A stretch of DNA of 64,000 bases from Neodothiora populina. Lineage: Eukaryota. A model generated the notes under the pieces. It was given only the letters and a program-made list of their open reading frames with translations. It had not been told where the DNA came from and searched no databases. Made by a program: the position numbers and the translations under genes. Below, piece after piece: positions 1,145 to 63,586 of the stretch. How positions within the stretch are numbered: position 1 is the stretch's first letter; every line of letters begins with the position of its first letter. The stretch lies in assembly GCF_041146345.1 (NCBI RefSeq), contig NW_027191413.1, positions 1,302,001 through 1,366,000 on the forward strand, written 5' to 3'.

Positions 1145-2149
1145 ATGGCTTCCTCGGCAGCCCAAGATGAATACGACGACCTCATGGCCCGCAACAGAGC
1201 GGCGCGCACACATCATCCAGAAGACGCAGGCGGCTCAGATAACGACTCGGTGAGCCTGAGCGAGGAAGACGAAGCCTCGAGGCAAGAAACAGCCTACCCT
1301 TCGGCTCCCACACACAACTACTCCCGTTCACGGTCCTACCTCCCCAATCAGCGCTCATACAACAACACGGGTCCCAAGGGTGTCATAGCAGATGCTCAGG
1401 CCTTCCGAGAAGCACAGTCCGCTCACCGGGCCTCGATGTCAGCAAGTCGCGCATCCTCAGACGTCAACACTCTCGTGCAGCCATACGTCGAAAACCTCAG
1501 TCTCAACGACTCGGCATACGAAGGTGAAGTCGCGCTCAAGGAGATCAAAGAGGAAGAGTACGACAAGCTACGGGGAGAGGCCGACGAAGATCTGGAGGAG
1601 GACGAGGACGATTTCATGATGCAATGGCGACTGAGCAGGCTTCAGGAACTGCGAGGCAAGAGCGTCATAGCCAGTAACGCCGCCGCCGAGCGCTTCGGCA
1701 TGAGCAAGAGCGCGAAACTCATCTACGAGGGTCTGACAGCCGTAGACGGCGAAGGGTTTCTGGAGGTCGTAGACGGCAGCCCACGAGAAGTCACTGTCCT
1801 TGTGTTTGTCTGGGATGACCGAAGCGAAGTCAGCAGTATGGTCGAGGACTGCATCCGGCAATTGGCGAGGAAGCACAAGACCACGAGGTTCATCAAGCTG
1901 CATTACCAGGACGCGGAGATGGAACCCGCGGGCGTGCCGGCTGTGCTGGCGTATAAAGGTGGTGACAAATTCGCTGGGTTGATCCCGGTGGTCGAGGAGA
2001 TACCGGATGATGCAAACTTGAGCCCGGAGACGTTGGAGAGTGTGTTTCAAAGGTACGTCGCCGCTTTCTCCTATTCACTACGTTTCCCATCCTTGCGACA
2101 TGAGAGTTAACATTGCTGACAACTCCCCGACAGACATCAAATGTTGTAG
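1145..2149 (+). CDS. Phosducin-like protein (PhLP1/PhnA/BDM-1 type; G-beta-gamma chaperone)
   Basis: N-terminal motif NTGPKGVIADA, acidic segment then W-R-x-x-R-L-x-E-L, C-terminal thioredoxin-like domain (RFIKLHY..AEMEPAGVPAVLAYKGGD). Exons 1145-2052 and 2134-2149; intron 2053-2133 (GTACGT..GCTGAC..CAG) gives the C-terminus FQRHQML*. Confidence 0.92.
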
Positions 2150-2661: not shown

Positions 2662-3408
2662 TTATTCGACGACACTAATACCCACTCCACCCTTCTTCTT
2701 CTTCTTCTTGATGCCCATCATCTTGCGTAACACCTCGCCCTCCTCATCATCATCATCCTCTTTTTCATCCTTACCAGCCTCTTCCGTTCCCTTCCCATCT
2801 CCCATCCCCGTCATCTCCTCTTCCTCATCTTCGTCATCCGAACCAGCTCCCTCCCCCATCCACCCCAACCCATCCCCACCCTCCTCCTGTCCCTCCTTCT
2901 TCTCCTCCAGAACCCCGAGCCCAAGGTCCATCTCGATATACCCGCCCTTGGCGCCCTCGTCGACGTCCTCGAAGGTCTTGAGCGTGCCGTTCTGGCGCGC
3001 GGCGAGGATGTCGGCGTTTGAGGCGGCGAGTTTGGGCAGGAAGGATGAGAGGCGCGAGAGCAGGTCTGGAGCGCCTTGTTGTTGCTGTGAAGAAGAGGTG
3101 GGGGTCGTCGTCGTCGTCGTGGATGAGGAGGAGAGAGGGAGGTTGGAGGTGCGCATTAGGGGTTTTTGAACAGGGAGCGTTATTGGTGTTTGTTGGGGTT
3201 GGGGCAGTTCTGTGTCTGAGGAGTCCGAGTCCGAGTCCGAGTCCGAGTCGGAGGCTTCTGATGAGGAGGATGAGGAGGAGGACGATAGTTCGGAGTCCGA
3301 GGTCCTTGTCGATGGCTCGATTGATGTTGCTGGTGTGTTGGACGGTTCTCTAATGGGCAGAGTGGGCGTCGATGAGGACGTGGATGGTGTTGATGTGCTC
3401 GTCGTCAT
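2662..3408 (-). CDS. DUF4598 / NOPCHAP1-like (C12orf45-like) protein
   Basis: Low-complexity S/D/E ORF with the family-like motifs LLSRLSSFLPKLAASN and YIEMDLGLGVLEEK, plus a basic C-terminal tail. Confidence 0.75.
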   Translation of the reverse strand: MTTSTSTPSTSSSTPTLPIREPSNTPATSIEPSTRTSDSELSSSSSSSSSEASDSDSDSDSDSSDTELPQPQQTPITLPVQKPLMRTSNLPLSSSSTTTTTTPTSSSQQQQGAPDLLSRLSSFLPKLAASNADILAARQNGTLKTFEDVDEGAKGGYIEMDLGLGVLEEKKEGQEEGGDGLGWMGEGAGSDDEDEEEEMTGMGDGKGTEEAGKDEKEDDDDEEGEVLRKMMGIKKKKKKGGVGISVVE

Positions 3409-3795
3409 TGTGCTTGTGGACGTGTTGCTGTTGTCTTGGATTTGATATGAAGGAGTAGGGGCGAGGTTGTTTTGTTGTTATGCTTCCTCTTTGAAGTGCA
3501 AGAAGAATAAAACAAATTCGAATGATATCGCGTTCTGGTATAGATGATGGAAGATAAGGTAAGATATGTTGAAATGAAGGTCAAAGGACTACTTTTATTT
3601 TCTTTATTCTTTAATCCGGGAAAAAGTAGAGTTCGATAAGATAAGAAGACAATCTGGTTATGATGAAATAATAAAGACCCTTTATTGTAGCTTATCGATT
3701 GTCAAGACTCCATCATCATCTCTTGAACTAACGGACATATCAGATTACAACATAATCCGTACTGTTCACCATCTCCAAAGTCATCATCATATACA

Positions 3796-5341
3796 TCAGT
3801 AAAAGTGCACAGCGAGACGCTTGTTGGCCGAGGCTATGTCCGGCACTCCAGTCCCACCCTGCACGTATGCCTTGTGCTTGATACTCTCTTGAGCCTTGAT
3901 GGCCGCCTCATTGGGGCCACCCATCCAATTACCCATGGTGCTAGCAATGACTCTCTTCCCGTCGCTTCGAGTCACAAATGCAGCAGGAGGAGCATTGATG
4001 GGCGTCGTGAATCCACCACTGACATTGGTTCCGTCTGTACTCGAAATCGTGGCAGGTCCGTCATTGCCTTGCTCTACGCTGATGTCGCCGTGCGCCTTGT
4101 GGTCATTACTCGCTTCAATCTGGAACTCAGCCCAAGTCGCTGGAATCAGCTTTCCCCTTTGCACTCGACCTTTGAACGACGTAGCCAGGCTGACGAACGT
4201 GGTGTGACCTGCTGCTACCTTGACAGACTTGAGAGGATGGTCAAAGTTGGCTCCAGCGGTGCCGTTGCCATTCCAGTAATTGTCGAAGAAGAAATATGTC
4301 TCTTCTTGCTTGGACTTGTTGCTAAGCAGGATTCCTGGTGCCTTGCCGTTGTCTTCATTGCCAGCGGGAGCCAACTGGGCTGATAGTGCCTTGACACGTT
4401 CGACAGGATGCAACGACACTCCTACGTGCTCTGTACTTGCGACAACAGAAGAAGCTGGAGATGATAACAGTCAGATACGTCGAAAACAAGACTAGATACG
4501 CAAGAAACAAAAACTAACGTCTGAGATTGATGACCTGCCCGATCTGCAGCTTCTTTGCATCAACACCTGGATTGGCCTTTTCAATCTCTTCCACCGCGAT
4601 ACCATGATCTTTCGCAATCGAGAAGAACGTGTCTCCCGCCTTGACGGTATATTTATGGGCATCTTCAGGAAGGTGACCATTGGCTGGCTTGACTCCATCA
4701 GGGGTCGCATCACCATCACTGTAGGTGACAATGATGTCTCTGTTCCCCTTGCCTGCTTTGCTCTAGGCGACACAGTCAGCATTGATTACTAACATGCTCA
4801 GACACTTCATTACCTGTTGGTTGTCGCCATCGTCTCCTGTTTTGCCATTCCAGGCTCCCGTATCGATATATGTCTTGCCCTCCGCGAATCTGCGAACAAA
4901 CGCGATCAGTGCAGGCTTGTTGGTCGTTCCGTCCATTCTGACAACGTTTCCTGCTTTGTCAAAGTGCAGCGAGGGCTTGACCGAGTCTCTTGTCTTCTGG
5001 TCTGCCTTCTTCCACTCTTCGTTCAGACCTTGCATGAAAGTGGCATCTCCCTTCATCGTACTGGGTTCAGCGACTTGCATGACTGTTACGTTACCTCCGG
5101 CACCCACGATGTTGCTGATGTCGATAAAGTCGTTGCCTCCAAATCCTTTCTTGGTGATTTCAGCCTCCTCCCCTTCATGTCCGTCGTGCAATGCAATGAT
5201 GGCGCCAGAAGCACCGTCAGGGGCGGCTATCTTGCTGGTCCCGTGAGCTGGCACGGTGATATTTGCATTGCCATTGAAGCCATGGACTTCGAACTCCTGC
5301 TTGTGGTCCGACTTGTTGTGGATGGAGATGGTATGAGACAT
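3796..5341 (-). CDS. 476-aa protein: putative thaumatin-like domain + LysM + putative thaumatin-like domain; no signal peptide, no Cys
   Basis: Exons 5341-4814, 4762-4519, 4454-3796. Introns 4813-4763 (GTAATG..GCTGAC..TAG) and 4518-4455 (GTTAGT..CTGAC..CAG) join ORF-track ORFs 4763..5341 and 3796..4419 in frame. The middle exon encodes a LysM (YTVKAGDTFFSIAKDHGIAVEEIEKANPGVDAKKLQIGQVINL, 4651-4523). The thaumatin-like call rests on motifs (GRVQR..PATWAEF..HGDISVEQG; EEAEI..DFIDISNIVG) and is less certain than the gene model. Confidence 0.8.
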
Positions 5342-6532
5342 GTTGGATCAGAAGATAAGCTTGTAGGTCTATTAATTTATTGTATACGAGGTAAGTCTTT
5401 TATTTCCAGATCACCAAACCGTGCTCCTCTCTCTTCTTATATCTTTGCCTACGATGCCGAAGGACAAGTCCACTTGCCACAGCCACAACATGACCTACCT
5501 GAAAGCGCAGCATCGTACCCTACGATGGAGTATAGATGTTCGTGGTTCCCGTTGGCAACCATTACGTACGGCTTAGCAGTTGACGAATATGTAATTCCAA
5601 CATGACCTATCCAATGGTTATCATTAGCTGTTATAGTCATACAGGAATGTTGCCACAGATCCGAAGTAAGACGGTGGCTGATGAGATGTGAAGGATGGAC
5701 TTTGTGTCTGCCTGATAGACAGCCTCATCTCCTCGACAAAATAGGCAAGCGGACTAAAGACTTCAGCTCTTACGTGTTATACGAACTTTAGCGCCCTGCT
5801 CCTCCGCCAGTAAGATCTGTTATCACGAACAAGCCCAAAACCGGGAAGCTGGGTTGGCTGCAGTCAGGTGGTCATCGTGCATACACACATGCATATAATA
5901 TCTTGGCATGTTGTATTGGGCCTTTGCAGCAACCTCACGTCCTGCTCCAGCCTTGGGTCCTTATTCTTCGACCCAAGACAGTCGAACCATGTGTATATTC
6001 GCAAATGACCCAGGACTGGCATTGGGTGTAGCAAGGGTTGACCGGTAGGGCGGAGCGAGGCTATCATCAGCGCTACCTGCAGTCGTACTGCATGAACCGC
6101 TCAGACTAAGTGAATCTTTCCACCTGATCACAACCTCACCTCTCTTATGATTCAATACACTGTGCAAGATACCGCATCCCTATTCCGTTCGCAATAACGG
6201 CCCCAAACCTTCATGCGATGGCACATCCGCATCCTGATCCCCTCTTTCAAACGTACAGGAGCAACGCAACCGAGGACGGTATGTGAGGCCACTCGGCAAC
6301 CTACACGGTGTCTGACCATACTTTACGGCCTTGCGAGAATGGTACGCCTGAGGCGCAGCTCGAGCTGGGAAGATCAGCTGTAGCATGGTGCTGTTACTGC
6401 GTCACAAATACAAGATACAAGCAATAAGAATGCACCGAGCCTATATCTCGCGTGTACCCCTTGACCAGACCTCGAAAGAGCACTGTGATATTGTCAGATC
6501 TCCCCCTCTAACAAAACAATCAAACACGCACC

Positions 6533-7294
6533 ATGGCTCACAAAAGATCCATCTCCTGGTCCTACCAAAATACCGCGAACCCAACAACAGCAGCAGCCAT
6601 AAACCAGCTGAACTTCCACGGGCCCATCAAATCCCTCAGCAACTGGGAACTATGGAGTCCCCCAGAGCTCAAAAACCGCCTGACCTTCCGTCCCATGGTC
6701 CATGACCCATCGCGCTTCACGAGCGCCGAATGGGCCTCGACGAGCAAATCGACGCGCAACGCAATCATCCACTTCTACAACGAGCCGGAGCGCATCCCCG
6801 TGAGTCCCTCGGACGCCGCGCAAGCCTGGACCTCCAAAATGCTACCTCTTCGCCACGAAAACCGCGGCAACCGACTCGTCAGCCCGTCCGTAGCAGGCGA
6901 CAGCGCGGGCGCCTCGTGGCTGCACAAATGGATGGACATGATCAGCAGCAAAGACGCCGCCGCGCACAAACCCGATTTTTTGGGTCTGCACTACTACGGC
7001 ACCTCGAGCGCCGCCATAATTGCCTGTCTGACCAGCATGCACGATAAGTACCACTTGCCTGTCATCGTGTCCGAGTGGGCGTGCACGTCGCGCGACGAGC
7101 ATGAGGTGCTGCAGTTCACGGTCGCGATGACGGATTGGATGGATCGCACGGACTGGGTGTTTGAGTATACGCTTTTTGGACTCACTGCTGCGCCCGTCGA
7201 TGGGTTTGTCTCGCCCGCTGCGCAGTTGATGAGGGGGGATAGGTTTACGCCGCTTATGAGGAAGTATATGGATGAGGTGCCTATGAAGTTGTAG
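6533..7294 (+). CDS. Glycoside hydrolase family 128 (Glyco_hydro_cc/Asl1-like) beta-1,3-glucanase, no signal peptide
   Basis: Intronless 253-aa ORF with KR-x-x-x-W start, NW, FRPMV, NEPE (acid/base Glu), LVSPS, PDFLGLHYY and PVIVSEWA (nucleophile Glu) motifs. Confidence 0.88.
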   Translation: MAHKRSISWSYQNTANPTTAAAINQLNFHGPIKSLSNWELWSPPELKNRLTFRPMVHDPSRFTSAEWASTSKSTRNAIIHFYNEPERIPVSPSDAAQAWTSKMLPLRHENRGNRLVSPSVAGDSAGASWLHKWMDMISSKDAAAHKPDFLGLHYYGTSSAAIIACLTSMHDKYHLPVIVSEWACTSRDEHEVLQFTVAMTDWMDRTDWVFEYTLFGLTAAPVDGFVSPAAQLMRGDRFTPLMRKYMDEVPMKL

Positions 7295-8517
7295 GGATTG
7301 CGTTCATTTTGACTTTTGCGGTTTTTTGGTTTCTCGAGGGCCGCTGGGAATGGAAGTGATTGGGCATTTGCTTTGGCTGATGGCAAGTGGTGGGATTATG
7401 GCTGTCGGTTCTCGGGATTGTTCTCGATTGATAGTCATCTGTTTTCTGTTCACTCGTCATATTTCCGGGACTGTAACACAGTCTGCCATGACACTTTCAT
7501 AGTAATCTTGCGATAACGAACTCGACACCCTGGACGAGATCATGTGTAGTAAGAAACAAATTCCGCTGGTCCCGCTGGGTCAAGTGAAGTCATGCACTTT
7601 TCCTCAGGAGAATGACTCTTCTCACTAACCGCCGCACAAGCCTGAGAACTTCCTTTCACCTCCAAGGAAATAGCAGCCCATGCTAAAAACGTCAATGGGA
7701 TACATAGATCTCAAACCCCAATCAACCAAACTACTGAACAGCATCAAGGACGCCTGAAACGAACCAGTGACTTCAGGCGTCCATCTTGGCCCCCTCTTTT
7801 ACTCTGACCGTCTTTCGCTACTAGTCAGCTGAGGTCCGTCTAAGCTCACGTCACTTTCGTTTCTGGGCTATGTCTACGCTGGTTTTGTGTTTCACAAGAG
7901 GACGCCTCACGCATGGCCTAGGTAGTTGGTCTGAAGGCTGTCAAATGACTTATTCTCGGCGGGGCTGAGGAGAAGGAGACGCTAACATGGTGTAGTCGTT
8001 GGGGATTTGTGGTTACATTGCTGGACTTGTATGTTTTCCTTGGTATCTGTGTAGTAGTAGCAGAAGGATGAAGGAGAAGCGTGGCTTACTGCTGGATCGG
8101 ATGTGTTTATGGCTAGGTCTGTTATTGGATATGTTCGCTTTTCTTGTTGGTGTTCAGCTGCTGATATGTAATGGCTCAGGCTTACTTTTCGATTCGTACT
8201 GTGGTGAAGCTACTGTGTCTGACCTTTTGAACAAGGCGCAGTGAGGTACTGCAAGTTGCTGCTCGCTCCTTTCTGGTCTCAGCTGTCGAGGGGGAGTATG
8301 ACTCTGAGTTGATGAGCAATCAGGCCTCGAGGCTGATGATTGTGGTCATGGTTTAGCCGAGGTTGTACTGACACCAAATTCGGATCGATAGTAAATGAAT
8401 AGTGTTCGGTATAAAGAGGTTTGTTTCGTCGAGCAGGGCAAAGGCCGTTCTTTCAAACAACAAACACCATCTTCTTTACCTCCGGATTAAATACTCATAA
8501 GATCTTCCCACACAGCA

Positions 8518-9423
8518 ATGTCACAATACGTAATCAAAGCAGGTGACACTCTGTTCGACATTGCCAAAGCGAACGGCACAACCGTCGAAGCCATCGATGC
8601 TGCAAATCCGGGCATCAACGCCTCCAATCTGCAAGTTGGCGAAAAGATCAATCTCTCCTCGAGCTCCAAAACCACAAAGTACACGATCAAAGCCGGAGAC
8701 ACATTGTTTGAGATCGCAAAGGCCCACAACACCACAGTCAAAGCGATCGAAGCTGCCAATCCTGGTATCAAAGCCGATAACCTACAAGTGGGTCATCAAA
8801 TCAACATCCCTTCTGCTGGAGGAGCCTCGAGTGGTGGTGGTAGTGGTGGTGCAGGATCTCATCCCGGAGAGGGTGGCAAGGAGGTAGGCCAAGGTTATAA
8901 AGCATACAGCGGGCCTGCCTCAAACTATCCTCATCCTTCGACCTGGGCATCGTACGACACTCTTGTTTCCCAGAACCATCGTCTGATGAAATTCCATGAT
9001 TCGGACTCCGAGATTCAGCTTATAGTCAAGGATGTCAAGACCGTGGCCAATGAGTCTGGTACCGATGCCCGCGTCATTCTATGCACCATCATGCAGGAAA
9101 GTGGTGGAGACCCTCGTGTCGTGGTGACGAACAATGGTGTTCGAAACCCGGGTCTCATGCAGTCTCACAATGGAGTGGGGTGGAACGCAAATGATCCGGC
9201 TGGCAGCATCCTGCAGATGATTAGAGATGGAACGGAAGGGACCAAGGACGGTGATGGTCTCAAGCAGCTGTACAAGCGCTACGGCAACTACTATGAGGCC
9301 ATGAGAGATTACAATTCGGGGTCTGTGAACCAAAATGACTTGAATGATCCAGTAGGAGCTACACCCAAGTACGTCGAGGATATCGCCAACAGGCTCATGG
9401 GTCATGTTTGGAACAACATGTAG
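8518..9423 (+). CDS. 2x LysM + lysozyme-like (SLT/GH23-type) muramidase/chitin-active protein, no signal peptide
   Basis: LysM repeats at 8527-8655 and 8680-8811, a Gly-rich linker, then the lytic-transglycosylase/goose-lysozyme motifs IMQESGG, GLMQ and AMRDYNSG. TATAAA at 8410-8415. Confidence 0.88.
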   Translation: MSQYVIKAGDTLFDIAKANGTTVEAIDAANPGINASNLQVGEKINLSSSSKTTKYTIKAGDTLFEIAKAHNTTVKAIEAANPGIKADNLQVGHQINIPSAGGASSGGGSGGAGSHPGEGGKEVGQGYKAYSGPASNYPHPSTWASYDTLVSQNHRLMKFHDSDSEIQLIVKDVKTVANESGTDARVILCTIMQESGGDPRVVVTNNGVRNPGLMQSHNGVGWNANDPAGSILQMIRDGTEGTKDGDGLKQLYKRYGNYYEAMRDYNSGSVNQNDLNDPVGATPKYVEDIANRLMGHVWNNM

Positions 9424-10164
9424 GAAAGCATCGAGTGGGCGCCGTCGCAGGCTGTCAGAGGATGGTTTACTTGGTCTTGCATTGTACTGACTGCATCATT
9501 TCGTTTGCTTGATTGTTAGTACATAGTTTACTCCAATATTACGCTTTACTCCGATTCCGTTTCGACCTAAGACATGCAGCTAGTAGCTTAAGCATGCCGT
9601 GACGCCAGGAGCTAAGAGGCTGAGAAGACGATGTGCTGCATGTGTAGTGTATCCTTCCACCCAAAAGAACTGTTGGTATTGGAGCTGTCGTCAGTGAGAT
9701 ATCAGGCACTGACTATCATATACGGCCCCCGCACCACATGTCATGGTATCAGTAACGGCAAGTCATCCAAGCGCGGGTCGATGCGCCAACAAGAGCCTGC
9801 ATGATCTTCCTCCTTGTAGATCAAATCAGCAGGTACCGTAGAGACTGCGCAACGACGGTCTTGACAGGTCCAGTCATCCGGTGGCTTAGCCGATCAGGCA
9901 ACCCTTCAGCTGTGGCCTTACGCGGCGAACTGTAGCGTAAGGATTAAATTCAGGTGCAACTTCTATTTTCGTGCAGCTCAGCTCACGATTCTGCTTTGTT
10001 TCGACCTGATATCCGGTTGCTGAAGGCCTGAAGGTATTGTGGTGGCTGGATAGCAATGTCATTCGCGTCGGCAGTGATGGCTTTTCGCCGTATAAGTAGG
10101 CCCGGGTCGTCCTCCTCAATGCTCTAGAAACCACAATCATCCACTGCTCAAACCTACCGCAATC

Positions 10165-10659
10165 ATGACGCCTGACGAAACCTCTGCTTTGAACAGGAAC
10201 AACGCTGCCCGTAAGACAAAGGGTTGTCCACCACTTCACTGGGACGCCAACCTTGCCCGAGAAGCTACGGCGTATGCCCAAAAGCTCGCTAGCACACGAG
10301 AAATGGTCCACTCTGGCACGAAGGGCGAAGGCGAGAACCTTTACATGACATCGCCGCGCAATGATCCCTTAGACGCTGGTGTCAAGGCCTGGCTGGATGA
10401 AGCTGCAAATTACCATGGACAGAAAATTGGAGAAGGTGACTTTGGAAGTTATGGCCATTACAGTGAGTGTATTATCCCTATTCGAGAGCGCTTGGTTTCT
10501 ACGATCAAGATGAGATATACTGACAGCAACCTAGCCCAATGCATGTGGAAAAGCACTACTCATGTCGGATTGGGCCATGCCAAAGATTCAAAGGGCGATA
10601 TCTGGGTTGTAGGGAGATTCACCCCACCAGGTAACTGGACAGGGCAGAAGCCGTATTGA
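10165..10659 (+). CDS. CAP/SCP (PR-1-like) protein, 140 aa after splicing, no signal peptide
   Basis: Motifs PLHW, HSG..GENL, W-x-DE, GHYTQCMW and FTPPGN. The 72-nt intron 10463-10534 (GTGAGT..CTGAC..TAG) restores GHYTQ. TATAAG at 10091-10096. Confidence 0.92.
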   Translation: MTPDETSALNRNNAARKTKGCPPLHWDANLAREATAYAQKLASTREMVHSGTKGEGENLYMTSPRNDPLDAGVKAWLDEAANYHGQKIGEGDFGSYGHYSECIIPIRERLVSTIKMRYTDSNLAQCMWKSTTHVGLGHAKDSKGDIWVVGRFTPPGNWTGQKPY

Positions 10660-11421
10660 AGAGAGTTGCATCATAATGTTCGAATTCCTTAGCTATCAAC
10701 ACAAAATTGCTCAAGTACAGCATAATACCTAGTTGCAACATATAGACGAATGATGAAGACATCAGATATCCTACCGCTGTGATATGAAGTCAGAAGCAGC
10801 GTGACTCAGCAATTGTGGGGTCGTACTAGACTCGGCGCTTAAACAAGCCGGGAACGGTGACCTGAACCTACATTAAGGTACCAAATGGACCACAGCTGCC
10901 GCCTTGTGAACGAGGGGTCCATTCTTATTGTCCTTGATCAATGGGGTGAGACCTATCGTCTTCAAATCGGATCTTCTGGAACCAGTCCGTGATAATATTC
11001 GCATCAGCACAAGAGTTGACGACACCCCATTTTTGCTTCTGATCTTACGAACATACTTTCATATCGAAGCACTGAAGTCGTTACACAGTGCTCCGTATTA
11101 CTTCGAGCTATTAGGGCGCGATAAAGTAAATACCCACGACACAGGTGCTTCTCACAGCTATATTTACTGTACCTGTGTAAGTTCGAGACATCTTATTCAA
11201 TCATTGTAGAAACGTCAAATACAATGCAAAGCCACACACTCGTCATTCCGAGTATTATATTGCACGCAGATATTACATAATGTTGCGGTCCCTCGAACTT
11301 TATGCATGAAGCCTTACCTCCGGCCTTTTTTGATTGATGCTGACATGTTTAGTTTGACTGCAGACGTGAATCAGTCGGACTTTTGACACACTACAAAAGT
11401 GTTCTTCTCAAGTGCATAGAC

Positions 11422-12681
11422 ATGGCGATTCCTCGTCTCAATGTGAATGGCCTGCCTGGTGCTTCGGCGGAACAGGCAGCCGCTACGCAGTCCCCAGCAC
11501 GAGGCAAGGAAATGAGAGCAAATCTATTGTCAAAGTTACGTCCGCCACCCTTGGTACATTCATGGGACTTCTGGCACGATCGCCAGAATCGCCAGGAACG
11601 TAGAAAGGACGCAAGCAAGGACTCCAAGCCCTCCGAGGCCGAGGGATTTGCCAATGAGTCTGAACTAAGTGCAGCCGCAAGGGAAGGACTAGAAAGTCAC
11701 AAGTATGAAGATCGCCTTGTGCACCTTGCAGAAGTGACAGACGTCCGCGCTTTCTGGAACTTGTTCAACAACTTTGATATCTCGACGCTCCCACTGCGTG
11801 ACTCGGTCCACCTCTTCCACAGAGGTGTAAAACCCGTATGGGAAGACGCACGCAACGCTCGAGGCGGCGCCTGGACATTTCGAGTGCCGAAGGAGAAGGC
11901 ACAGGAATTCTGGAAGCAGATCTGTATGCTGGCTATAGGCGAACGCCTTCAGGCAGCAGTAGAAAGCGAACGGAAAACCTTCCGCGATGACATCTGCGGC
12001 GTGTCTCTCAGTGTACGCTTTACCAGCACCCTGATCCAGATCTGGAATCGCGACGCAAGACACGAAGAAGGAATCGCCATGATCCTCTCTACGGTTCTCG
12101 AAAACATCAGTCCAGAGCTTAAGCCTAAGGAAAACAGCTACTACTACAAACCACACGATGAGCATGCTGGTTTCAACACCAATGCGGCGCCCAGTGGCGA
12201 ATTCTCCCCACAAGAAAATAGAGATATGTCTCCACCACCAGGCACAAGCCACGGACCTCAGACTTACCGAATGGACACAGGAGAAGCAGCATCTCGACCT
12301 ATAGAAGTGCAGGGCATGCAAGACCAAACCAATAAGGAGCAGAGTGGAAGAACGCTGCCAACATTCCCACGGTCTACTAAAGGCGTTGGCTTGATGTCTA
12401 CCAGGCCGGGCCAGGGCCTTGACGAGTCGAAGACGGCGGAGATTGTCTCGAGGGTAGCGCCTCCAGGACTCAAGGGCGAGCAGTCAGGGGTTGGAGATGG
12501 GGGCGATCCATTAGCAGCTGTAGCAAAGGGCACTGGGTACTATGGGCAGGACGAGGCGGTAAAAGACATCGAAGAAAGTCTGACCAGTATGAAAGAAGCT
12601 ATGGACAAGATTGCAGAAAAGGATCATCACATTCAGGGGATCGAGGGACAAGAAGTGGATGAAAAGATGACTGACGGCTAG
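11422..12681 (+). CDS. Translation initiation factor eIF4E family protein (class II/4EHP-like) with long C-terminal extension
   Basis: PPLVHSWDFWHDR, YEDRL (Tyr at the Trp56-equivalent position), FWNLFNNF, LFHRGVKPVWED..NARGGAW, DDICGVSLSVR, IQIWN. The first in-frame ATG is 11422; upstream exons are not excluded. Confidence 0.88.
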   Translation: MAIPRLNVNGLPGASAEQAAATQSPARGKEMRANLLSKLRPPPLVHSWDFWHDRQNRQERRKDASKDSKPSEAEGFANESELSAAAREGLESHKYEDRLVHLAEVTDVRAFWNLFNNFDISTLPLRDSVHLFHRGVKPVWEDARNARGGAWTFRVPKEKAQEFWKQICMLAIGERLQAAVESERKTFRDDICGVSLSVRFTSTLIQIWNRDARHEEGIAMILSTVLENISPELKPKENSYYYKPHDEHAGFNTNAAPSGEFSPQENRDMSPPPGTSHGPQTYRMDTGEAASRPIEVQGMQDQTNKEQSGRTLPTFPRSTKGVGLMSTRPGQGLDESKTAEIVSRVAPPGLKGEQSGVGDGGDPLAAVAKGTGYYGQDEAVKDIEESLTSMKEAMDKIAEKDHHIQGIEGQEVDEKMTDG

Positions 12682-60612: not shown

Positions 60613-62068
60613 ATGACTATGGTAGACGTGATGCCACAGACAACTCCTTTGCCACAACCATCCCAACCTCAGTCCATCGATCGCAGCGCCCTAAGGATCA
60701 GCACTCCACCTCAGACTCTGTCCGCTTCCATTAACAACCTGCGCAGCGGCCAGCTGCATCTTGACACCTTCTCTCCAATCAACCAAAATGGCGCCTTCGA
60801 GTTCGATCGAGTCATCAAGTCGGGGACAGTATCCAAACGCACGCGGAAGACAAAGGTAGCGAAACGTCTAATGCTTGCGTTCTCCGAGACAACGGAACTT
60901 TTCTGACAACCTACTCCAGACGTGGAAGCCCATTCACCTCGTCCTCCGCCCGAATCTCCTCTCCATTTATCGTGACAGGGATGAGACCAAACTACGCCAC
61001 CAGATAAACCTTTCCGATCTCACCGCTGTCGCTCGTCAGAAAGACCCGAAAGGCAAGGCCAAACATGCCTTTGCCTTGTTCTCGCCCTCACGGAACTATC
61101 ATCTCGAAGCCAAGAGCGACAAGGATGTACAAGAATGGGTAGAGCTGATCCGAAGAGAGGCTCGCATCGATGAGGAGGAAGAGGACATGGTCATGACAAG
61201 CCCGAACGGTGCTAGAAGTACATATCACGGATTCGAAAGACACAACAAAACTCAGCCGCAATCACAATCACTATCCCAAGACCCCCACACAGGTTACTCC
61301 TCGTCCGATCCTGAGCCAGTGCAGAGGTCGCGGCCCGGCACACAGATGCACAGCGCCCGAAGGCCTTCTCACACCTTGGAATACTCTGGCAATGAGTATG
61401 CCTCGAACTCGGACTTCTCCGACTCTGCCGGTGGTGCGGCAGCGCGCATGTCCAACCTCTCTTTGGTCTTGACCGAGACTCAGTATCCGCCACCTGCCCA
61501 GCCACAAGGCGCTGCGGCAGGTACCTCGCCACGCCTCACAATCGGCACGCGCAACGCCAGTCAAATGTCTGGTCTCAATATTTCCGAGGCCATGGCGCTG
61601 CCTAAGCAGGACGATGAGCGAGTCATCTGTCATGGTTGGATGTTCCTTCTCAAGTCCCGGTCTGGTGTCAGACAATGGAAGAAGGTGTGGATGGTGCTGC
61701 GACCCAAAAACCTGGCTCTGTACAAGAACGAGGACGAGTACTCCGCCATGCTCATCATTCCCTTTCACAACATTGTCAACGCGGTCGAGATAGATCCCGT
61801 GAGCAGGAGCAAGAAATATTGCCTGCAGATCATCACGGAAGAGCGGAACTATAGGTATTGCGCGCCGGATGACGACAGCCTGGCAAGGTGGCTGGGTGCT
61901 TTCAAGAGCCTGTTGGTCAAGAGGAAGGAGATGGAGCTGCAGAGACTGGCATTGCAGAACCAAAGTCAAAGTCAGCTCCCGCCACAAGCTCCGCCACAGC
62001 AGCAGCAGCAGCAGCAGCAGCCTCCGAAACCACAGCCACCACAACACCCACAGACACAGCGTTCTTGA
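60613..62068 (+). CDS. Tandem PH-domain protein (Opy1-like) with poly-Q tail
   Basis: PH1 VIKSGTVSKRTRKTK|TWKPIHLVLRPNLLSIY..EWVELIR; PH2 VICHGWMFLLK..QWKKVWMVLRP..WLGAFK. Intron 60856-60919; (CAG)n near 61997-62020. Confidence 0.88.
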
Positions 62069-63586
62069 CAAGTATTGCAGGACTAATTACCTTGGCGTAT
62101 TTCTACGAATTCACGACGCTAATAGTTGGCATTGTTGAATATATGCCTCTTCCTGTAGCCTTCACCAATATCGAATGAGTGATTATTTCTTGAAGCAAAA
62201 TGCGTATTGACCGATGATGACTTGGATAAATTGCTTTCCCGAAATCTTGCGGATCTTTGCTAAAAGGGGACTGATTGAAGAGAAAGCCGTGGCTGAAAGG
62301 TCCAGGCGTCTTTATGGTACAATGTATGTGGAGGTGTCGGCTTCAGACACGGGGAAAACCCACTTCGTATTTGCAAGAGCAGCAGAAAGTCTTGTAGGGT
62401 CGATGTGCTCTTAGGCCTGCTATGCCAGGCAGAGCGTGTGTGATCGTGCCAAGCGTGTCCGAGTTGTCCAGTGAATAGTTGAACGAACTAGCCTCCTTAT
62501 ATCATGACTATCCTGACACACTAGACTGTCTGCTGAGTATCAGTTGTAAAGCAGAGTTACCTACCTTAGCCATCAATCTCGCGCAGCAGGAAGCACAGAC
62601 GCACATGCGGCTGGGAAGCTGAGTTTAGCGTGCGTCGCTTCCGGAGCTTGACTGCATTGGTGAAACAAGCTGGTCTTGTCTGCATTTTTGTGTGTAAAGA
62701 ATGCGCCGTGTTGGCTGGACTTTTGAATGCGGTCCGTACTAACTGTACTTGACACGCACCATCGCAAGTGCACGCTCAACCTGGTTTCTGGCAGAAGGGT
62801 CGAATATCACCCCCGATTCTCCCGACCCGCGATAATTACAGTAGATACACTGCAGAGCAAACCTCCTAACACTAACCACCGACTACAGTCCCTGGCTGCA
62901 CTACATTTGGACATGCTTCTATTCATCCTGGCGCAGATTACATCCTGCCTGTGAAAACCCCCTTGCAGATTGCAATCCCCGGTGATACCGAGCACGGACT
63001 CGAGACGTTGAAAGTACACACGCTTTACACCACTATCTTGCGCGCCAACAACCAACCAGATAGTCGGATTGTTGAAAACAGAAGAGGGCAAACACCCAGG
63101 AGCATCATCCAGACGTCGGCCGATGGACCTTGTTTAATCCACGCTTTTCCCTCTCATCAGTCCCAGGTCGCGTCAGATTAAGCGTCACAGCGGCCCTGTC
63201 CTTTGCCCTTTTCTTTTGCCATAGACTGTCTTGTCTGTCTATTCGTTAGATTACCTCATTGCGAAAGCATCGAGTGCCACGACCACCACCGCGAAGTCAG
63301 CTTAGCACCTTTTTACCCTCGCTGCACCTTTGACGATTATCTGTTCCGAAGGCGCTTTTTCTTGATTGTCTTACCTGCCTCCCAAGATTGTTATCGATTT
63401 CCTGATCCGGATGTCACGCGCCTGCCGTCTCTCTTGACTCGAATTTCTCGCCCGCTCGTTCAGTCAAACAATTGTTGTTTCATCGGGATTATTCCACCTT
63501 CCTTCGTGGATTAGGAAGACAGGAAGTCCCGGACGCACATATCATTCCGCTTTGAATTGCCTCGACCACAACACCAGAATCCAATC

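Follow-up and report, generated by a model that had tools for sequence, protein, structure and literature searches.

A single spliced gene of the fungus Neodothiora populina would give a protein of the order D1-LysM-linker-D2, in which D1 and D2 are domains of predicted thaumatin fold; made in the cytosol, it would be a tandem member of the thaumatin/GH64 superfamily. The gene lies in a 64,000-nt stretch of genomic DNA (the window, below), and with the gene of a leaderless GH128 β-1,3-glucanase it appears to form a conserved two-gene unit, transcribed outward from one promoter of Crz1 type. Given the computed gene model, folds, conservation, leader absence, synteny and motif enrichment, we propose, with a probability of roughly 0.45, that the products are a calcium-stress-induced cytosolic pair, a glucan-binding protein and a glucanase, that would act on the fungus's own wall from within or once the cell has lysed. 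The leader absence, the GH128 partner and the promoter motif, which go beyond the earlier note on this DNA, hold most of the functional information. The thaumatin gene is built as follows (window positions).

4814..5341, minus strand: exon 1, residues 1-176, most of the thaumatin-fold domain D1; N-terminus MSHTISIHNKS
4763..4813, minus strand: intron 1, 51 nt, phase 0, GTAATG..GCTGAC..TAG
4519..4762, minus strand: exon 2, the final D1 strand (residues 186-191), a short linker and the LysM
4523..4651, minus strand: LysM, free of cysteine, residues 214-256, Pfam PF01476 with E 1.8e-13 to 5e-13
4455..4518, minus strand: intron 2, 64 nt, phase 1, GTTAGT..TCTGAC..CAG
3796..4454, minus strand: exon 3, a low-confidence linker (residues 261-289), then D2 (residues 295-476, nt 3799-4344) with the cleft residues R357, E367, D381, Q386, D389 and D463

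Joining 5341-4814, 4762-4519 and 4454-3796 gives 476 aa without a single cysteine, letter for letter the NCBI hypothetical protein AAFC00_002793 of N. populina (P0001 in our set). Both introns have a canonical donor, a CTGAC branch point and a YAG acceptor. An open frame is also produced by 988 GT/AG combinations; thus, the open frame by itself is no evidence for the splice model. The earlier note had described a hidden three-exon gene, with canonical introns joining the exons into a cysteine-free product of 476 aa: the model and the product agree with the joined coordinates and with P0001, while the gene is not hidden, as NCBI already models it; it is unannotated in function.

Of the 31 related loci with D1, 16 were inspected at the intron-1 position; we saw a GT donor in 10 and intron-free read-through in four, and the other two escaped the pattern used. 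In seven of the 16 a single frame without stops led from D1 into D2, and in locus L005 both domains lay within one 450-codon frame. If intron 2 were left unspliced, translation would stop right behind the LysM, the in-frame stop being inside the donor GTTAG, and three orthologues (P0214, P0216 and P0233) are annotated with an end exactly there. One could speculate that intron 2 is often retained and that a 258-aa D1-LysM protein is the main or an alternative product. We consider this very unlikely: the identical donor with its in-frame stop is found behind D1 in the LysM-less loci L009, L010 and L014, so the short entries most probably come from gene calls that left the intron in; D2 is conserved and intact and lacks a start codon (the 450 nt that follow the intron-2 donor contain no in-frame ATG), and the single frame across D1 and D2 in seven loci argues in the same direction.

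The AlphaFold2 model, computed from an alignment of 89 sequences, has a mean pLDDT of 87 and a pTM of 0.53, with the linker 261-289 disordered, i.e. three confident domains whose arrangement is not fixed; a core strand begins already at residue 4. The first 28 Foldseek rows were thaumatin-family chains, all of them. In an independent all-against-model structure search D2 matched 7p22 (Amycolatopsis; Z 15.9, rmsd 3.0, 168 residues) and D1 matched 7p23 (Puccinia; Z 15.2, rmsd 2.8, 169 residues); the GH64 structure 3gd9 scored below the thaumatins (Z 12.4). A D2 profile of 60 sequences had 25 matches among PDB sequences, to the thaumatin family only (best E 4e-6), and a full-length profile had none there. 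Pfam Thaumatin (PF00314) was above its cut-off in neither domain, GH64 (PF16483) was not listed for them, and no Pfam match of any kind was significant; weak Thaumatin matches (E<=1) were present in 45 of 89 relatives, the best at 8.6e-4. The thaumatin fold that the earlier note had suspected in both flanking domains is therefore what the structure comparisons return, with thaumatins ahead of GH64, and we are confident that the predicted structures place D1 and D2 in the thaumatin/GH64 fold superfamily. The two domains are hardly related to each other in sequence: BLASTP was not significant (best E 1.1) and profile comparison gave a weak match (E 4e-4, probability 34%, 96 columns), which suggests that the duplication or fusion is old. 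Of the common skeleton that had been proposed for them, the first three motif pairs do align in this profile comparison.

Two papers, in their available text, define thaumatins through 10 or 16 conserved cysteines and a REDDD acidic cleft, with the signature G-x-[GF]-x-C-x-T-[GA]-D-C (PMC3048497, PMC13148976). This signature was absent from all 92 fusion homologues. Lack of cysteine, noted before for the flanking domains, is true of this protein and not of the family: position C388 is a cysteine in 69 of 89 relatives, and D1 is free of cysteine in 41 and D2 in 18 of the 89. The loss of the disulfide scaffold would fit a reducing compartment.

A complete REDDD cleft was absent as well. By sequence alignment (not coordinates), in which the last Asp is the least certain position, D2 reads R-E-D-Q-D and D1 has no Arg. 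The D2 residues are conserved (R357, E367 and D381 each in 88/89 relatives, Q386 in 89/89, D463 in 82/89), and an invariant Asp389 sits where thaumatins carry Asn. D1 has A50 in the Arg place, E61 (87/89), D74 (89/89), Val79 as the fourth residue and D173/N174 as the last; it adds conserved E56, E58 and D173. The Glu and the fourth-position Asp are the proposed catalytic pair in thaumatins and GH64, and the GH64 general-base Asp presumably falls, by this sequence mapping, on the Gln/Val position of D2/D1. With Gln (D2) or Val (D1) in the fourth place catalysis is doubtful, and with that pair broken D1 and D2 would be binders or rearranged enzymes. On the other hand, for nematode thaumatins of weak activity the available text gives four cleft residues and a Glu-to-Asp spacing that D2 keeps (PMC13106811).

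In comparison with thaumatin-like proteins (PR-5, PF00314, GH152), both domains thus have the same fold (Z 15-16, rmsd ~3 Å, ~168 residues) and keep the cleft Glu and first Asp, D2 also the Arg and last Asp; on the other hand, here the domains are in tandem and leaderless, they lack the disulfide scaffold, signature and Pfam match, the fourth cleft residue is changed, the LysM is optional and the pairing with GH128 is fixed. The laminaripentaose-producing β-1,3-glucanases of GH64 (3gd9, 7vtk, 5h9y) share the superfamily and are also disulfide-poor; D1 aligns with them over 176-185 residues at Z 9-12, below the thaumatins' Z, and their chains are twice as large as D1 or D2. The tandem protein appears to resemble a thaumatin/GH64-fold glucan-binding protein, yet by its sequence falls outside PR-5/GH152; it is not a canonical PR-5 protein.

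D1 and D2 occurred together in 90 of 92 longer homologues, with ~50-78% identity, and form a conserved fungal fusion. It was seen in Dothideomycetes, lichen-forming Lecanoromycetes and Orbiliomycetes, in a few Sordario-, Leotio- and Eurotiomycetes, and in Mycena; Aureobasidium and Coniochaeta are among the genera, and in lichens there are two paralogues. In the N. populina genome itself, where one candidate was scored for each domain, neither D1 nor D2 was found to have a paralogue; a canonical secreted thaumatin is encoded there separately. None of the 92 fusion proteins had a hydrophobic leader, all falling below the threshold of a hydropathy proxy (not a trained signal-peptide predictor), with which unconventional secretion is compatible; among stand-alone D2 relatives of at least 200 aa, a hydrophobic leader was present in 33 of 51.

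The complete LysM reported earlier in the middle exon was confirmed by Pfam (PF01476, E 1.8e-13; 49-51 bits against a cut-off of 20.9) and by structure matches (TM 0.89 to 4pxv, Z 7.8 to 5k2l). A LysM between D1 and D2 was present in three of the 92 homologues, also in P0103, P0214, P0216 and P0233 and, in two copies, in locus L018. Judged from the sequences, the family core is D1 plus D2, into which a few lineages have inserted a LysM. On a tree of 43 rows its presence needs two changes, e.g. one gain in the Neodothiora/Elsinoe/Aureobasidium clade and a loss in Aureobasidium, with P0216 positioned apart; deep branches of this tree are unsupported. A tree of the LysM domains (10 rows, 43 columns, two cluster LysMs being missed by the pattern) had no supported branch and so gives no verdict on recruitment of the LysM from the neighbouring SLT gene described below. 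Four Orbiliomycete proteins (P0043, P0047, P0088, P0099) have ~200-230 charged, low-complexity linker residues in its place; the linker is thus a variable insertion site.

Fungal LysM effectors of the Ecp6 type have the LysM fold in common with this protein (Z 5.3 to 4b9h); here, however, the LysM is single, free of cysteine and embedded in a larger protein without leader, and it is nearer to chitinase and bacterial LysMs than to the effectors, and neither a signal peptide nor the LysM-only architecture of a secreted effector was found. One could still imagine unconventional secretion of the protein, which would bind or trim fragments of chitin and β-glucan and so conceal them from a partner plant or alga. 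The LysM forms are mostly from plant-associated Dothideomycetes (Neodothiora, Elsinoe, Sphaceloma), and lichen fungi supply many of the homologues. We regard such a role as improbable, as the leader is absent, 89 of the 92 homologues have no LysM, and the family extends to Aureobasidium, Orbiliomycetes, Coniochaeta and Mycena.

The other features of the cluster are located upstream of the thaumatin gene.

5342..6532, no strand: bidirectional upstream region; three Crz1-type sites, G[AT]GGCTG, at 5480-5486, 5674-5680 and 5720-5726
6533..7294, plus strand: leaderless GH128 β-1,3-glucanase, 253 aa, the divergent partner; E84 and E181 invariant
8518..9423, plus strand: LysM-LysM-SLT protein (transglycosylase/lysozyme-like), leaderless, 301 aa, accessory in some related loci
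10165..10659, plus strand: CAP/PR-1-family gene, leaderless, with one probable intron, absent beside the pair in related loci

The partner belongs to GH128 (PF11790, 111 bits), with both catalytic Glu (E84, E181) kept in 31 of 31; 29 of the 30 closest relatives are leaderless. It matched PDB 6ub8 over its whole length with E 1e-71, the other GH128 structures being at E 3e-11. We take 6ub8 to be the subgroup VI exo-β-1,3-glucanase of Aureobasidium namibiae (Santos et al. 2020). In our search of the open full text, no description was found of a thaumatin partner, a lack of leader or a promoter for GH128 of this type.

Synteny was followed in 44 metagenome loci, 31 of them with D1. A divergent GH128 gene lay upstream of D1 in 20 of these 31, and in 18 of the 20 with a flank of at least 1.4 kb; none of six stand-alone-D2 loci had a head-to-head GH128. 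After six loci with a flank of <800 nt were left out, the remaining 25 fell into 16 sequence groups, and GH128 was present in 12; of the other four groups two were short-flanked, while in L020 and L032, which have 3-6 kb of flank, GH128 is truly absent beside the fusion. The genes around the pair vary by locus (102 of 134 ORFs from 12 loci were scanned) and are unrelated between loci, indicating that the GH128/thaumatin pair is kept while its surroundings change.

Such strict pairing could also mean that the tandem is a non-catalytic regulator of GH128, an inhibitor or chaperone, in the way that TLXI acts on xylanases. The altered cleft would agree with this, TLXI is among the structural neighbours (Z 11.9), and small thaumatins are xylanase inhibitors according to the available text of PMC3048497. 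The same text gives the acidic cleft as absent in TLXI-type proteins, while D2 keeps R357, E367, D381 and D463 (82-88 of 89); moreover, the inserted LysM points to a polysaccharide target, and L020 and L032 have nothing of the kind to regulate beside the fusion. We consider a regulator quite unlikely.

The two genes beyond GH128 are less constant. A LysM-SLT gene follows GH128 in three of the nine loci with at least 5 kb upstream (two sequence groups), and a CAP gene is next to the pair in none of the 44. The SLT match in the window only just passes its cut-off (22.2 against 21.3 bits); compared with PDB sequences, this gene matched through its LysMs only, apart from weak alpha-lactalbumin matches at E ~0.8. 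The SLT domain is two thirds identical in L004, L005 and L018, and a second SLT-type copy is present elsewhere in the genome (G000:C5:694761-695219). A GTGGCTG site occurs upstream of the CAP gene at ~10042-10048. At L018, where the thaumatin tandem has two LysMs, a GH18 chitinase fragment lies past the LysM-SLT gene (3820-4500), and at L027 an NLR-like gene (PNP_UDP, NB-ARC, TPR) is immediately downstream of the tandem (6244-8844).

These neighbours bring in a different target. The leaderless tandem, GH128, LysM-transglycosylase and CAP, stored in the cytosol or induced, could be spilled at a breach onto an attacking fungus, oomycete or bacterium, as the fungal counterpart of the plant set of PR-5, PR-2-type, lysozyme-type and PR-1 proteins. 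All four window genes are leaderless, and leaders are present elsewhere in the genome, in two other CAP genes, in the canonical thaumatin and in at least three of five other GH128 loci; the genome's three strong LysM matches are all in the thaumatin gene and the LysM-LysM-SLT gene. The recurrence of LysM-SLT, the GH18 and NB-ARC-TPR genes near the pairs of L018 and L027, and a patchy distribution in which Mycena sequences are no more distant than those of ascomycetes point the same way, as does the antifungal action of many thaumatin-like proteins (PMC3048497, in its available text). We hold this reading to be possible, though on the unlikely side: the CAP gene is not shared, SLT is shared in few loci and its match is marginal, the unsupported deep branches and the two lichen paralogues weaken the argument from transfer, and the constant part is a pair directed at glucan, which the producer itself also contains.

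The region between the two genes was compared in 13 intergenic sequences, one per group plus the window, trimmed of GH128 coding sequence; a second shared motif, CCAGTCCCA, was rejected as an artefact of coding sequence left in before trimming. The 5-, 6- and 7-mers ranked first were CAGCC, AGCCTC and CAGCCTC. The motif CAGCC[AT]C, of two variants and picked post hoc, has 24 sites in 12 of the 13 regions (1.9 per kb); 200 dinucleotide shuffles gave 4.0 +/- 1.9 sites, with a maximum of 10. Outside these regions the motif was sparser, at 0.48 per kb for the remainder of the loci and 0.35 per kb for that of the window, and 13 other upstream regions of the window had three sites in 13 kb. The motif was also present upstream of stand-alone D2 loci (four in 5.2 kb, ~0.8 per kb) and at the fused loci without GH128 (five in 4 kb, 1.25 per kb).

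GAGGCTG, the reverse complement of CAGCCTC, is the yeast Crz1/calcineurin consensus, and from Aspergillus GTGGCTC/GAGGCTC are reported, as far as the available text of these papers goes (PMC2873923, PMC11868491); there, Crz1 motifs of filamentous fungi are also reported to be divergent. We infer Crz1/calcineurin control of the promoter sites from a consensus that is the yeast one; another zinc-finger factor could bind them.

Calcium influx, on wall stress, wounding, cell death or spore release, would then turn on both genes, and the proteins would meet the fungus's own β-1,3-glucan/chitin wall from inside or after membrane failure. A leaderless protein would reach wall glucan only from inside a dying or sporulating cell, on rupture or by unconventional export. 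The thaumatin domains would bind, and perhaps nick, β-1,3-glucan via their remodelled acidic clefts, the LysM would be an optional chitin anchor for the tandem protein, and GH128 would do most of the cutting. Along with Crz1 control, we infer here the location, the ligands, any catalysis and the own wall as target.

In fission yeast, Agn2 and Eng2 are cytoplasmic glucanases working on the own wall from inside; the analogy is functional only, as they are from unrelated families (GH71 and GH81), are under meiotic control and have no gene pairing. The available text of PMC9214231 places them in the ascus cytoplasm, where they dissolve the own wall, and this is our precedent, by analogy, for endolysis.

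The present results fit an own or a foreign wall as the target, and the LysM-SLT and CAP neighbours suit defence at least equally. We rank own-wall endolysis or remodelling first and wound-released defence second; the inhibitor, host-masking and short-isoform readings come after. A bolder variant, which we hold to be unlikely, would make the cluster a mobile and widespread damage-response island under a bidirectional promoter driven by calcineurin/Crz1. Its content would be the tandem thaumatin, GH128 and, as optional members, the LysM-transglycosylase, chitinase and CAP: cytosolic forms of wall-attackers that are otherwise secreted, stripped of their leaders and freed on breach against fungal or bacterial intruders. 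The thaumatins would be a new glucanase family, with a catalytic site rearranged by the Asp-to-Gln change together with the neighbouring Asn-to-Asp.

In our searches of the open full-text literature, we found a description neither of the gene pair nor of the domain architecture, which the earlier note had not recognised either. A thaumatin fold is now assigned to a conserved fungal family left blank by Pfam; the thaumatin/GH64 superfamily gains a leaderless, disulfide-poor tandem branch, and a structurally characterised type of GH128 gains a genomic partner and a candidate trigger. In lichen fungi, tree pathogens and black yeasts it becomes testable whether cytosolic β-1,3-glucan-active proteins serve self-lysis and spore release or wound-released defence; as no part needs disulfides for its expression, the assays are easy.

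Several minor observations concern relatives. Three homologues from the basidiomycete Mycena (P0036, P0058, P0075) have the same similarity to the query as ascomycete ones and fall among them in a midpoint-rooted tree. Stand-alone D2-like domains were seen in Rotaria, a bdelloid rotifer, and in Albitalea terrae, a bacterium (P0212, P0260; L067:3413-4678), the bacterial protein having a long low-complexity N-terminus; P0129, P0189 and P0209 resemble these proteins, and the rotifer and Albitalea domains are possibly horizontal transfers. A first scan of prokaryotes gave no match. A link to phages was dropped, with no match in phages or viral contigs and with viral fold matches that were ordinary thaumatins. 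In P0098 an apparent C-terminal piece of GH128 is joined to D2 on one strand, either another arrangement of the partners or a mis-call.

Within the window, the pair has ordinary flanking genes, none of which was found in the related loci: a phosducin-like protein gene (1145-2110, plus strand), a gene of an acidic low-complexity protein (2662-3477, minus strand) and an eIF4E-family gene with a long C-terminal extension (11353-12681, plus strand). One 1.2-kb bin far from the cluster (61201-62400) has five CAGCC[ACT][CT] sites, equal to the bin of the cluster promoter.
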